Positions 23,054 through 41,029 are shown, counted from the stretch's first letter. The stretch is 64,000 bases of DNA from Nitrospirota bacterium (GCA_013388455.1 JACAFF010000002.1:23115-87114), one strand, 5' to 3'. The notes: generated from the sequence alone by a model not told the origin. Made by a program: numbers and translations.

Positions 23054-23749
23054 TCAATACGCATAGAGTACAGACAGACGGGCTTTCTCAACAGGATTAT
23101 TTGTATCCTGTGAATTTATCTCTATTCTGTATAAATAGGGTGTTGGAGGTCCGGTAAATGTTGCACATTCATAGGCTGCGCCGGCACCACAAGAAAGATT
23201 TTCTCCGCTTAAATCTGTAACACCGACAGTTGTATCAACAATCTTTGCAAAAACCCTATAATTTGTTCCATAACCAGAGAGATCGAAAGGTGGTATATCC
23301 GGACTTAAAACAGGGTCAAGCGAAGTACCATCAGATCCACATATTGTCCAGTTGTAAGAACCGTCAATATTGTAAGGTGGCATACATAATTTACGGCATA
23401 AACAATTATTTGGTAAAGGATCAGGATATATCTCATCAAATGGATTTGTATCAAAACCACAAATACAGGAAGTCGGCAAATTAACAAGTCCCTGGATTAC
23501 AAGTTCACCGCGATTTGTTACAAGAGCAGCAGAAATCTCAGCTCCACCAATTCCGGCGTCAAGAGCGGATGCATATCTTTTGTGAAAACCTGAAAATTTT
23601 GTGCCCTGTATTACAAGATATAGCAATGCAGAAATAATCGCAAGAGCGATCAATGACAGGACAAGCACCATCATGAGCGCAATACCCTTTTCATTATTAA
23701 TAGTACAATCTATTTCCTGACTTCTAACTTCCGCCTTCTGACTTCCCAT
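23054..23749 (-). CDS. pilX: PilX-like type IV minor pilin (module A)
   Basis: 231 aa. PilX_N-type N-terminus EKGIALMMVLVLSLIALAIISALLYLV. Last gene of a pilY1-fimT-pilV-pilW-pilX operon. Paralogue at 32913-33614. Confidence 0.7.
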   Translation of the reverse strand: MGSQKAEVRSQEIDCTINNEKGIALMMVLVLSLIALAIISALLYLVIQGTKFSGFHKRYASALDAGIGGAEISAALVTNRGELVIQGLVNLPTSCICGFDTNPFDEIYPDPLPNNCLCRKLCMPPYNIDGSYNWTICGSDGTSLDPVLSPDIPPFDLSGYGTNYRVFAKIVDTTVGVTDLSGENLSCGAGAAYECATFTGPPTPYLYRIEINSQDTNNPVEKARLSVLYAY

Positions 23750-23750
23750 T

Positions 23751-38800: not shown

Positions 38801-41029
38801 ATTATTCTTTTGGCATCTGTACTGAACCGGATTGCGGTAAACAGGATTTTCACCTTCTGTTATGTAATCAGTATTGTTCAACCGCGTGAACTGTGCATCA
38901 CTTGTTCTCTGAGCAAAATAACCTATTGCCTCATAAAAACCCTCTGCAAAAGGTGTCCATGTCGAGGCAAAAATATCATCAATAGCACTAATAAGACCGG
39001 AATTATGGTCTCCTACTGAATATTCACAGGTTTCACCTGCCGGGCAATGTGAATCAACCGAACAGGTTGTAGCAGTGGTGGTTGAGCAGTTACCCATAAT
39101 GTAACCTATTACCATGCCTCCATCTAAATTCGTTGCTGCAACGCAGGTTTCACCGGTAGGACAGTCGAGGTTCGTCTCACATACTGTCAAACTTGTATTG
39201 CATATCTTTGTACATGGGACGTTTGCAGGGCATTCAGTGCTTGAACCATAGTAGTTAAAGGTCATTGCTCCAAAATGTATAATGTCTTCGAATTCCTGAA
39301 TTACTCCGGATGGCGGTGAAGCGAGATTAAGTTTCACAGTTAATGTGGCAATAGGAGCACCGAGCTGTGACTCAATCCCTATATCTCCGATTATTGCCGG
39401 AAGATTATCATAATTCTCTGTTGTTGATGGGTCGTCGGAAGGGTCAATTACAGGCGGGACTTCTACATCACCACAGAATTCCTCGTGCTTTTTTATGATA
39501 CAGTCATCGCCGCATTCTCCAGTAGGCAAACAGCCTGTCCATAAACCACCACCGGCATAACATGCTCCGGCATAGTCAAGCCCGCAGAGCAAAGAAGGAT
39601 TTCCGGGCAATATTACATGCGGACCAGCTTCACATGTTCCTCCCGGACAATCTGCTGCTCCTGTGCATATCATGCCGTCATTATCCCCTCCAACACACCT
39701 GTAATTCTCATCATAAAGATCCGTGCACTGATTTTTGACTGTATTTGCTTCATCAATGCTGATTGGAGTGCCGTTGTCAAGCGCCCAGCATGCCTGGATA
39801 CTCTGTGTAAAAACTACCTTCTGTTTTGCTTCAGTCGTTGCCGTAGGGTTCACGCAAGGACCTACATCCCAGTCACAGTCAGCATTCTTTTTACATGACG
39901 AACCTATTTTTGTCGGATCGCCTACTGTACATGTCTTTGGGCCACCGGTACAAACACCGGCTAATTTTATACAATCTGAATCCTTTGTACATGTCCTCGT
40001 CACTTCTTTTTGACAGTATGAAGCTACAGATAAGGCAGAAAGACAATCCTCAACAGCCTTTTTGATGCTTGCAGGGTCATGCCCTTCAATGAATGCATCT
40101 ACTGCTTCCTGGCATAATGCTTCTTTGTAATCACCCTGGAATATATCAATGAATGTCTGTCCGCCAATTGAAAGTAAAGTGTCATTAAAAGGGTGTTCAG
40201 GGCCCCTTACACCGAAGGTAATTCCCAAAGATGTATTCGGATTTGGATTTGGATCTGAATACTCCTGAAAAGACTGGGTAGTTATAGCTTCTTTTATAAA
40301 CTTTCTCCCTACACATCCTCTTGATTCTGACTTCAGATAATTGTCTGCAATATCATTGCAGGTATCTCCGGTTGGGCAGTCAGAATCAACATTACATGAG
40401 ATTGTTGATGTATCGGTTGATGATGAACATGCCTTATCAATGTATTTTCCTCCAGTCAGAATCCATTTCTGTATGTCAAACTTAGATGCTGTAAGCCAGT
40501 TGAGATAATTCCCCTCTGCAACAAACCTTTTGACTGTCGGAGGAGATACGGTTGTATCAAGATTAATACACAAAGTTCCGGTTACATATTTGTCACAGCT
40601 TGCAGGGAAAGGAGTGACTTCCTTGAAATAGTTATTGACAAAATCATATTCATAATAATGGTACCAATCCTCAAAATACCCCTTATAATAATTCCCATAA
40701 TTATATGTCTGGTCGTAACAGTAAGATGGATCACGGGTATAGGTTATGCTGGTACAAATCTCCCCCTCAGGGCAACTGACTGTATTTGAGCAAACACCAC
40801 CTCCGGAACAGGTGCCGGTATATCTTCCTTTATCAATATATATTAAATCGAACATACTGGCTGAATTGTCTATCGTCATGAGAAGATTCGGTTTAACACC
40901 TGCGACGATAAACGGGGGGGTAATACAGTAGTCCTCCATTACTTGTGAATAGGCTGCTGATGAAAATATAAAAACAGTTAATGATAGAAGAATAATTATT
41001 TTCCCCCAAAATTTTATTAAGGTCTTCAT
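35846..41029 (-). CDS. pilY1: giant PilY1-like pilus tip adhesin (vWA + expanded Cys-rich regions + PilY1 beta-propeller), module B
   Basis: 1727 aa with a signal peptide. MIDAS LLMTIDNSASM and VLLITDGMSTAD. VLVGANDGMLHAF. SD GAGGTG upstream of the ATG. Shares conserved blocks with module A (TWTPFAEGFYEAIGYFAQRT, GTAASVLATGEGSGANL, TDPLATPIGAVFFTT). Confidence 0.8.
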   Translation of the reverse strand: MKTLIKFWGKIIILLSLTVFIFSSAAYSQVMEDYCITPPFIVAGVKPNLLMTIDNSASMFDLIYIDKGRYTGTCSGGGVCSNTVSCPEGEICTSITYTRDPSYCYDQTYNYGNYYKGYFEDWYHYYEYDFVNNYFKEVTPFPASCDKYVTGTLCINLDTTVSPPTVKRFVAEGNYLNWLTASKFDIQKWILTGGKYIDKACSSSTDTSTISCNVDSDCPTGDTCNDIADNYLKSESRGCVGRKFIKEAITTQSFQEYSDPNPNPNTSLGITFGVRGPEHPFNDTLLSIGGQTFIDIFQGDYKEALCQEAVDAFIEGHDPASIKKAVEDCLSALSVASYCQKEVTRTCTKDSDCIKLAGVCTGGPKTCTVGDPTKIGSSCKKNADCDWDVGPCVNPTATTEAKQKVVFTQSIQACWALDNGTPISIDEANTVKNQCTDLYDENYRCVGGDNDGMICTGAADCPGGTCEAGPHVILPGNPSLLCGLDYAGACYAGGGLWTGCLPTGECGDDCIIKKHEEFCGDVEVPPVIDPSDDPSTTENYDNLPAIIGDIGIESQLGAPIATLTVKLNLASPPSGVIQEFEDIIHFGAMTFNYYGSSTECPANVPCTKICNTSLTVCETNLDCPTGETCVAATNLDGGMVIGYIMGNCSTTTATTCSVDSHCPAGETCEYSVGDHNSGLISAIDDIFASTWTPFAEGFYEAIGYFAQRTSDAQFTRLNNTDYITEGENPVYRNPVQYRCQKNNVLLITDGMSTADLNANVNTLVSTYNDGDGQIDAVASATCPKFAGSRNIDDLAWLAKNKDITDFTSTPPVTDVNSKTITSYVVFNGVGSTDPGECNPDRLLLETGENGCDPGDDCYHKADDPEALKNALRETLLEIAGQAASGTAASVLATGEGSGANLVQAIFYPEITFPASNEVTWVGTLKNIWYYIDPFLGNSSIREDTSQDNTLSLTVDDIVTFYFDTGTNTTMAHLYRDTDGDGDTDSEDASRNSPVYFENVRHLWEAGAKLWVRSADDRIIYTTTTGSSRTDFTTANAATLRTLLHADSDEEAINIIQYVRGYDNKYCSVSGITCSLDTDCTEVGERCSSPRNRITKLDLNGDGDTTDTVNGISEGVSRVYKLGDIVNSTPRIVSFVPLNNYYKTYQDNTYKEFTETTDYQNRGIVLVGANDGMLHAFKLGKIEMFEEKSKKATISGTDIGKEEWAFIPRSALPYLEYLRDGTYCHLYYTDLTPYVLDASICAEGECSGDYWDQIKDVNSWRTIVIGGLRLGGACKDPTDTNAPAGVADTCTKDINGDGAITNEDCVLTPTSGIGYSSYFALDITNPTDPQVLWEFTDPNLGYSTTGPAIVRIAGKTDASKSEPLENQIPDHNKNGRWFVVIGSGPTGPINTNTRQFYGHSDQNMRVFVLDLKDGSLVRTIDSGIQNAFAGSMVNAQADFDMDNLTANGFYQDDAVYFGFTKAENNPPLSTTKWNSGGVMRLFTKNSLDPDDWALNKVIENIGPVTSAVTRLQNFKEDDIWLFWGTGRYYFKIADNIDDSDSGRSLYGVKEPCFSPAGVDFDCTTTVARSSLGDASSGASSDEDGWYINLDLCTDLDASGNPINVDCSATSTSGYKTERNVTDPLATPIGAVFFTTTKPAADVCSFGGASHLWVVDYDTGGAVSSSILRGKALLQVSTGSIEEITLESALTEKGGRRTPMIQGVPPTGAPPGILIPPNPVDKILHIREK

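Follow-up and report, generated by a model that had tools for sequence, protein, structure and literature searches.

The 64,000-nucleotide (nt) stretch of DNA from a Nitrospirota bacterium analyzed here (GCA_013388455.1 JACAFF010000002.1:23115-87114; hereinafter, the window) carries the gene run pilY1-fimT-pilV-pilW-pilX twice on the minus strand, as module A (23054-30712) and module B (32913-41029). These two paralogous operons each encode a complete set of type IVa priming/tip proteins, and the two probably serve as alternative sets on one pilus machine. By analogy with studied pili, A and B are predicted to function as alternative tips with different adhesive specificities. The ten open reading frames (ORFs) follow the same order in both modules and lie at the coordinates given by an earlier reading of the sequence alone (hereinafter, the sequence-only reading):

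25928..30712, minus strand: pilY1-A, 1594 amino acids (aa), with a Sec signal peptide, a MIDAS (metal ion-dependent adhesion site) motif DNSAS at residues 54-58, 37 cysteines and a C-terminal PilY1 beta-propeller.
25419..25931, minus strand: fimT-A, a GspH/FimT-like minor pilin with the motif G/ITLVE (slash, cleavage site) and matches to the N_methyl, ComGD and GspH models.
24914..25432, minus strand: pilV-A, a PilV-like minor pilin with G/VSLVE, an N_methyl match and a match below the cut-off to TIGR02523 PilV (E 8.7e-5).
23751..24953, minus strand: pilW-A, a PilW-like minor pilin with G/FTLVE, an N_methyl match and 25.6 bits to PF16074 PilW (E 1.4e-5), under the cut-off of 26.
23054..23749, minus strand: pilX-A, a PilX/GspK-like minor pilin without Glu5 (G/IALMM), 84% identical to its ortholog in a sister genome (JGI contig Ga0394873_0003628, hereinafter L010).
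35846..41029, minus strand: pilY1-B, 1727 aa, with a Sec signal peptide, a MIDAS motif and Cys-rich inserts in the N-terminal half (65 cysteines), and a C-terminal PilY1 beta-propeller.
35188..35796, minus strand: fimT-B, a GspH/FimT-like minor pilin with an uncertain start codon, the mature end G/VTLTE and matches to the N_methyl, GspH and ComGD models, 91% identical to its L010 ortholog.
34725..35213, minus strand: pilV-B, a GspI/PilV-like minor pilin with G/VSLVE and an N_methyl match.
33616..34728, minus strand: pilW-B, a GspJ/PilW-like minor pilin with G/FTLVE, an N_methyl match and 21.8 bits to PF16074 PilW (E 2e-4), under the same cut-off.
32913..33614, minus strand: pilX-B, a GspK/PilX-like minor pilin without Glu5 (G/IALMM) and with no Pfam match of its own.

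The genes within each module overlap or abut, with measured junction gaps of -4, -14, -40 and +1 nt in module A and +49, -26, -4 and +1 nt in module B, in agreement with the tight coupling described previously. The A and B proteins are 51% (PilY1), 61% (FimT), 55% (PilV), 62% (PilW) and 60% (PilX) identical. The N-terminal strings quoted by the sequence-only reading are indeed identical in the two copies, its C-terminal strings (PYLYRIEI..RLSVLYAY and NYRWK..IVVKP.NLRG) are found in both, and protein alignments confirm that the globular middles are diverged, with indels. The 64-kb window contains six prepilin cleavage motifs, all within the two modules. A Pfam scan that covered nearly all window ORFs of at least 100 aa detected no pilA and none of pilB/C/M/N/O/P/Q/T, as had been stated; the remaining genes are chromosomal housekeeping ones (lpxK, zapA, uvrD, aroB/aroK, radical-SAM enzymes, and others). 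The lack of linked machine genes, previously considered unusual, is not so, given that minor-pilin operons are often unlinked from these genes, as in the case of Pseudomonas aeruginosa fimU-pilVWXY1Y2E.

FimT, PilV and PilW of both modules contain Gly-1 and Glu+5, that is, a class III signal, and all six reach the cut-off of Pfam N_methyl. Both PilX proteins have Met, not Glu, at position +5, and it is a missing Glu5 that marks the top subunit of the PilX/GspK type (PMC7541494). Neither window PilX matches PilX_N (PF14341) even at E values up to 5; the Geomonas PilX homolog, which is 34.5% identical to PilX-A, scores 29.5 bits against the cut-off of 25.5, and the other Nitrospirota homologs score 13-16 bits. 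An NCBIfam search with the module pilins returned just weak matches to generic pseudopilin, ComG, GspH and PilV models, and PilV-B has no PilV-specific family match in Pfam or NCBIfam.

The large proteins that head the modules belong to the PilY1 type, with the propeller domain that the sequence-only reading expected. PilY1-A scores 32.5 bits against PF05567 (above the cut-off of 28.1) and PilY1-B 27.2 bits (just below it). A profile of 35 sequences of this family, including PilY1-B, matches the C-terminal domain of P. aeruginosa PilY1 (PDB 3HX6) with E 2.2e-22; PDB searches with the single PilY1-A or PilY1-B sequence gave no match, so that just the family profile reached 3HX6. The AlphaFold2 (AF2) model of PilY1-A residues 930-1594 (mean predicted local distance difference test score, pLDDT, 79; predicted template modeling score 0.83) is all-beta and matches beta-propellers. 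In the N-terminal half, the MIDAS-type residues D54-N-S56-A-S58 of PilY1-A are invariant in 35 homologs; the AF2 model of this region (pLDDT 74) retrieves von Willebrand factor A (vWA) folds as the top PDB matches in Foldseek, namely TFIIH p44 and p34, integrin I-domains and Streptococcus sanguinis PilB, none of them significant (best E 0.17). Many of the cysteines in the two PilY1 proteins are located in CxxDxDCPxGxxC-like motifs, and a loose D-x-D-x-N...DD stretch, a tentative candidate for the calcium-binding loop of the propeller, was spotted by eye.

Divergence between the modules is uneven and falls mainly in the PilY1 N-terminal half (10-40% identity between A and B, vs 50-75% in the propeller) and in the globular pilin domains. 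In this same N-terminal region, PilY1 homologs carry inserts of the Calx-beta, InlB-B-repeat or dockerin type, and one homolog, P0102, has He_PIG domains there; such inserts fit an adhesive, modular N-terminal head. Comparison of the window genome with L010 indicates that the N-terminal ~600 aa of PilY1-A evolve fast (proportion of nonsynonymous differences, pN, 0.24-0.45; ratio to the synonymous proportion, pN/pS, up to ~0.7), and that the corresponding region of PilY1-B is nearly frozen (pN 0-0.11). The heads of PilY1-A and PilY1-B are under different selective regimes.

PilY1-A has 511 homologs at E <1e-10, many of which are labeled PilY1/PilC by their sources. The full-length relatives, of 1500-1900 aa, are found in Nitrospirota and Geobacterales, the latter being the nearest homologs beyond Nitrospirota, so that the large size of PilY1, noted at first as unusual, is the rule in this group. 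A scan of species-representative genomes yielded eight loci in metagenome-assembled genomes (MAGs) of Nitrospirota/Thermodesulfovibrionales; wherever the contig is long enough, the order is always pilY1-fimT-pilV-pilW-pilX, followed by a gene for an immunoglobulin (Ig)-domain lipoprotein of the He_PIG family. The pilY1-first order, also considered unusual at first, is therefore normal for this Nitrospirota clade and Geobacterales. In Geomonas oryzisoli (CP076723, L015), the genes for PilD, a histidine kinase, a sigma-54 regulator and DsbC are followed by those for PilY1, fimT, pilV, pilW and pilX, then by a second minor-pilin set (four genes) and by those for PilM, PilN and PilO. Because this orthologous locus lies between pilD, the regulators and dsbC on one side and pilMNO on the other, the modules can be assigned to type IVa pili, to the exclusion of the type II secretion system (T2SS), in line with the propeller, PilW and N_methyl domains and the 3HX6 profile match.

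The tandem layout B-lipoprotein-A recurs in L010 (copies A2 and B2) and in L013, where the upstream module is more distant. The A genes of the window are 75-86% identical to the L010 orthologs at the protein level, and the B genes 80-91% (PilY1-B, 89%), with the exception of PilV-B (61%). Two of the related loci (L002, 13825-19897; L014, 21481-24857) carry a further, divergent downstream cluster with the canonical order pilV-pilW-pilX-pilY1 and 27-30% identity to the window proteins; hence, both gene orders occur at one locus in some genomes. An exact look-up of the PilX-A sequence retrieved just a 1.3-kb Logan contig, without source context, and that of P0033 retrieved nothing.

The spacer between the modules had been described as holding only an island of repetitive extragenic palindromic (REP) sequences and a REP-associated tyrosine transposase (RAYT). 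These elements are present, but they are not alone, as the lipoprotein gene is located there as well:

31021..31752, minus strand: He_PIG/Big_9 Ig-domain lipoprotein gene, 243 aa, with the lipobox ISG/C and a Pfam He_PIG match at E 1.2e-13.
31955..32605, minus strand: RAYT, with 33.4 bits to Pfam Y1_Tnp (cut-off 23), flanked by REP palindromes.
30926..32424, no strand assigned: REP island, five copies of GACAGGCGNNNCGCCTGTC starting at 30926, 31779, 31858, 31937 and 32406 (0 expected by chance).

Homologs of the lipoprotein gene are found directly 3' of pilX in L001, L002, L004 (both modules), L006, L007, L010, L011, L013 and L014, and the lipobox is retained in nine of the ten complete homologs. 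The ratio of nonsynonymous to synonymous rates (dN/dS) relative to L010 is 0.13, indicative of purifying selection. The gene is absent from the Geomonas locus. Since its homologs directly follow pilX in the related loci, the He_PIG lipoprotein gene is a lineage-specific sixth gene of module B. It follows that the RAYT/REP element is an insertion that splits pilX-B from this conserved member of the module; the RAYT itself is a selfish element that inserted at this point and does not belong to the pilus system. The element has the makeup of a REP/RAYT, with a Y1 (IS200-like) transposase and palindromic REP copies on both sides, three of which are spaced by exactly 79 bp downstream of the RAYT; no copy of GACAGGCGNNNCGCCTGTC is found elsewhere in the 64 kb. 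In the equivalent position, L010 carries a GIY-YIG ORF and L013 nothing; the presence of the former suggests that the intergenic region downstream of pilX-B is an insertion hot spot of selfish elements. The ORF of the RAYT, the start of which is provisional, bears an unusual extension made of PAEPQ-like repeats at the N-terminus, and the REP copy at 32406-32424 lies within this ORF.

The possibility that the conserved ends of the genes support recombination or gene conversion, raised by the sequence-only reading, finds support for the N-termini of PilW and PilV and in a chimeric pilV of L010, and none for the C-terminal ends, where no sign of exchange was detected and the same-codon fractions do not differ from those in the rest of the gene. 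In the four-sequence alignments (A and B of the window with A2 and B2 of L010), the site patterns group the sequences overwhelmingly by paralog, as opposed to by genome (905 vs 37 in pilY1, 99 vs 3 in fimT, 115 vs 6 in pilX, and 155 vs 20 in pilW), but in codon columns 21-60 of the pilW alignment, the numbers are 0 by paralog and 6 by genome. These columns include a shared tract:

34630..34647, minus strand: pilW-B side of the tract, codons TGIFVP, with five nucleotide sites that group by genome.
24819..24836, minus strand: pilW-A side of the tract; A and B are identical over 24817-24860 except for one base.

Both window copies of the tract read ACA GGA ATA TTT GTG CCC and both L010 copies TCG GCx ATA TTT GTC CCT, and the differences include two synonymous sites. 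Neighbor-joining trees show the same discordance: for the globular part of PilW, A clusters with A2 and L013-A3, and B with B2 and L011, whereas for the N-terminal 50 residues, A clusters with B and A2 with B2. The N-terminal 45 aa of PilW are 96% identical between A and B, compared with 69-80% in relatives of equal globular divergence (58% identity for A-B, 54-62% for the relatives) and 91% between the orthologs A and A2, the globular parts of which are 87% identical. For PilV, A and B are 93% identical in the N-terminal 45 aa and 38% in the globular part; the respective values for relatives of equal divergence are 69-76% and 36-45%. At the DNA level, the six pairwise identities over the 45 N-terminal codons of pilW and pilV are approximately equal, and the same-codon fraction between paralogs, 0.67, is at the level of orthologs instead of that of paralogs (0.47). 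The PilX N-terminus groups by paralog and so is conserved by selection alone.

The most direct case of exchange is the B-module pilV of L010 (5561-6034 of that contig), which is a chimera with a B-type 5' half and an A-type 3' half. The first ~35 codons show a DNA identity of 0.85-0.96 to window B, and the 3' half is closest to the A2 copy of L010 itself (up to 0.93), compared with 0.42-0.50 to window B. Inside the window, A and B share no exact match longer than 27 bp, and their conserved N-terminal tracts differ by ~13-15% in DNA; recent gene conversion was accordingly rejected, and the exchange there is old and short. Co-adaptation to a common partner, specific to each genome, could contribute to the by-genome signal at the protein level. 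In L003 and L005, which are separate contigs of one MAG (FW300_bin.22), the N-terminal 60 residues of PilW match at 58 of 60 positions, and the globular parts are long-branched; this pair could be either paralogs with homogenized N-termini or two strains binned together.

The duplication is old, because the synonymous differences between A and B are saturated (proportion of synonymous differences, pS, 0.63-0.77). Both modules are likely to be functional because dN/dS between the window and L010 orthologs is 0.08-0.21 for all ten genes, with 0.11 for pilY1-B; given these low values and the intact ORFs, a pseudogene status was rejected. The start of fimT-B is uncertain because of an insertion at its junction with pilY1-B:

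35753..35793, no strand assigned: 41-bp palindromic insertion at the pilY1-B/fimT-B junction, a perfect inverted repeat (TCATTGCGAG...CTCTTGCAATGA), single copy in the window.

The window fimT-B lacks the ATG start of the L010 fimT and would have to be initiated at an upstream TTG or GTG, giving a leader ~27-31 aa long.

Under the reading of A and B as alternative sets on one machine, either set may seed pilus assembly on a shared machine encoded elsewhere in the genome, by analogy with Myxococcus xanthus and P. aeruginosa. By the same analogy, the set in use would be placed at the tip of the pilus, where the outermost part would be the variable N-terminal portion of PilY1, and the modules would therefore give pili of different adhesive or sensing properties. 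The hydrophobic N-terminal helices have to suit one prepilin peptidase, platform and major pilin; strong selection probably keeps them almost the same in the two modules, and in pilW and pilV occasional short gene conversion between the modules appears to contribute. It is possible, if rather doubtful, that this amounts to cassettes with a constant stem and a variable head, in which recurrent short conversion keeps the PilW and PilV (perhaps also FimT) membrane and stem helices matched to the machine, larger exchanges shuffle globular domains into new tips, and the He_PIG lipoprotein is a previously unrecognized partner of this class of PilY1; the B/A chimeric PilV of L010 would exemplify such shuffling, and the P0102 PilY1 homolog has He_PIG domains fused into it.

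Two predicted promoter motifs lie upstream of the modules:

41126..41140, minus strand: sigma-54-type -24/-12 promoter consensus TGGCACAGGAATTGC, 97 nt upstream of pilY1-B, by motif match alone.
30745..30774, minus strand: sigma-70-like site TTGAAA-18-TAAAAT with TG, upstream of pilY1-A, by consensus scan alone.

The pattern TGGCAY-N5-TTGC has a single match in the 64 kb, the one upstream of pilY1-B, with 0.14 expected by chance; the L014 pilY1 is preceded by a 15-mer identical to this site and the L011 pilY1 by a similar one. The sigma-70-like site upstream of pilY1-A overlaps a degenerate sigma-54-like element, TTAGAAC-N5-TTGCT (GG to AG), as compared with the upstream sequence of L010, TTGGAACAGTTATTGCT. 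Because the promoter motifs differ and a hairpin resembling a terminator, formed by the REP copy at 30926-30944, stands after the lipoprotein gene and before pilY1-A, separate expression of A and B is plausible: module B would be transcribed from the sigma-54 promoter, and module A would have just the sigma-70-like site and the degenerate sigma-54 element.

Several observations weigh against the interpretation of A and B as two functional, alternative tip sets. PilV-A, PilY1-B and the two PilW proteins score below their family cut-offs, no Pfam family matches either PilX, PilV-B lacks a PilV-specific match, and in the fold search the N-terminal half of PilY1 does not match the vWA fold significantly. 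It is nevertheless highly improbable that the genes encode, instead of pilus-tip proteins, the T2SS pseudopilins GspH-I-J-K together with a large secreted substrate. The H-I-J-K-like gene order and a fourth subunit without Glu5 are shared with T2SS, and FimT gives weak matches to GspH/XpsH. However, each operon is headed by a gene for a PilY1 propeller protein, the PilW-specific Pfam family is matched and none of GspI, GspJ and GspK (T2SSK) is, the GspH matches of FimT are sub-threshold, the Pfam scan of the window detected no gspC-G, gspL or gspM, and the Geomonas ortholog adjoins pilMNO and the prepilin peptidase gene; a T2SS identity was rejected on these grounds. Further points of doubt concern the activity and partners of the modules. 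The promoter calls come from motif matches, the palindrome disturbs the fimT-B start and could thus impair module B in this genome, and no machine or major pilin gene that would point to the partner filament lies in the window. The synonymous-only version of the four-sequence test over the N-terminal 45 codons, underpowered with too few sites, is not significant (Fisher p = 0.17-1).

Two other explanations were considered. One of the modules might be a redundant duplicate that is drifting to loss, in which case the N-terminal identity would only mean that the segment under most constraint decays slowly, without exchange between copies. The palindrome in the fimT-B start region, the RAYT/REP insertion that cuts module B from its own lipoprotein gene, the 27-bp limit on identical DNA and the synonymous-only counts are all compatible with such a scenario, yet it is quite unlikely considering that all ten ORFs are intact and under purifying selection in both modules, that the pair is maintained in L010 and L013, that the A/B identity of the PilW N-terminus exceeds both that in relatives of equal globular divergence and that of the orthologs, with a tree that groups by genome, and that the chimeric pilV of L010 shows that exchange happens. 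Alternatively, the modules might serve different filaments, for example, an adhesive, retractile type IVa pilus in one case and, in the other, either a DNA-uptake pilus or a short pseudopilus of the secretion type, such as has been proposed for the Geobacter pilin machinery. The closest homologs outside Nitrospirota come from Geobacterales, FimT weakly matches ComGD and GspH, the promoter types differ between the modules, and the PilY1 N-terminal half is fast evolving in A vs conserved in B. Still, such a division of labor is unlikely: between the modules, the N-terminal helices are almost the same in PilV and PilW and ~80% identical in PilX and FimT, and this likeness argues for docking on the same machine and major pilin; furthermore, the composition of the two modules is the same, including the PilY1 propeller, and the Geomonas cluster lies beside a single pilMNO locus.

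The best-studied parallel for alternative sets on one machine comes from M. xanthus, in which there are three minor-pilin/PilY1 clusters, two of them each sufficient for pilus formation, and different tips have been proposed (Treuner-Lange et al. 2020, PMC7541494). Differential regulation of M. xanthus PilY1 proteins has been reported (PMC9109919), and multiple PilY1 copies, including long, Cys-rich clades with vWFA and propeller domains, are common in Myxococcota (PMC13190605). Clusters 1-3 of M. xanthus (PMC7541494, PMC8833165, PMC9109919, PMC13190605) resemble the window modules in that a genome holds several complete FimU/T-PilV-PilW-PilX-PilY1 sets, the PilY1 propeller is conserved and the N-terminus variable (with vWFA in some), PilX lacks Glu5, and there are long Cys-rich PilY1 clades. 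In M. xanthus, the sets are dispersed, and an accessory gene, tfcP, encoding a cytochrome c, is tied to one cluster type, whereas here the sets are adjacent in tandem, with pilY1 first, in an uncultured Nitrospirota host, and the accessory gene encodes the He_PIG Ig-domain lipoprotein. The window sets also show signs of concerted evolution in the PilW and PilV N-termini.

Other known systems share parts of this organization. The Geomonas locus encodes the same PilY1 family at full length (39% identity, ~1640 aa) in the same gene order, with tandemly duplicated minor pilins; there, however, just the four minor pilins are duplicated and pilY1 is single, the lipoprotein gene is lacking, and the genes sit inside the locus of the machine (pilD, pilSR-like genes, dsbC, pilMNO), in contrast to the window modules, which are unlinked within 64 kb. 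The P. aeruginosa operon encodes the same protein families, with a homologous PilY1 propeller and an inferred priming/tip role, and is likewise unlinked from the machine genes, but is a single set with pilY1 after pilX, additionally encodes PilE and PilY2, and has a PilY1 of ~1160 aa, smaller than those of the window. Neisseria PilC1 and PilC2 are two PilY1-family paralogs that provide alternative adhesive tips on one pilus; in that case, the PilC gene alone is duplicated, with phase-variable expression and no duplication of minor pilins, unlike the whole sets duplicated here. The T2SS pseudopilus tip GspH-I-J-K is homologous to the modules in the logic and order of its four subunits, and both have a top subunit without Glu5, but the T2SS has no PilY1 partner.

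A search of the literature library for PilY1 in Nitrospirota found no papers. Multiple minor-pilin/PilY1 sets, which are thought to give one machine different tips, are already known and have been studied mainly in Myxococcus, so the present locus is a further example, from an unstudied phylum, that extends the pattern to uncultured anaerobic Nitrospirota (Thermodesulfovibrionales-like). The variant features of the locus are the tandem placement, the pilY1-first order, the Ig-domain lipoprotein partner and the evidence for concerted evolution of the docking helices. The architecture with pilY1 in the first position and a giant Cys-rich PilY1 is common to the Nitrospirota clade and Geobacterales, and the conserved lipoprotein is added as a candidate accessory factor. 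The sequence evidence that paralogous sets swap their machine-docking N-termini and occasionally whole domains suggests how alternative tips might stay compatible with the machine. Practical value is limited for now.

Among the neighboring genes, one for a 722-aa lytic transglycosylase with TPR and SLT domains (20847-23015) shares the strand of pilX-A and starts a run 38 bp downstream of that gene. In L010, L011 and L013, the equivalent position is occupied by feoB/feoA/fur, so that the adjacency of the transglycosylase gene and pilX-A is specific to the window genome. The region 540-4228 contains three ORFs (174, 562 and 380 aa) without a Pfam match. Finally, several B12-binding radical-SAM and SPASM enzymes are encoded at 44866-49577 and 60454-63149, beside genes for lpxK, a lipid A acyltransferase, an MMPL transporter and fatty-acid synthesis, and this neighborhood may be a lipid-modification cluster.

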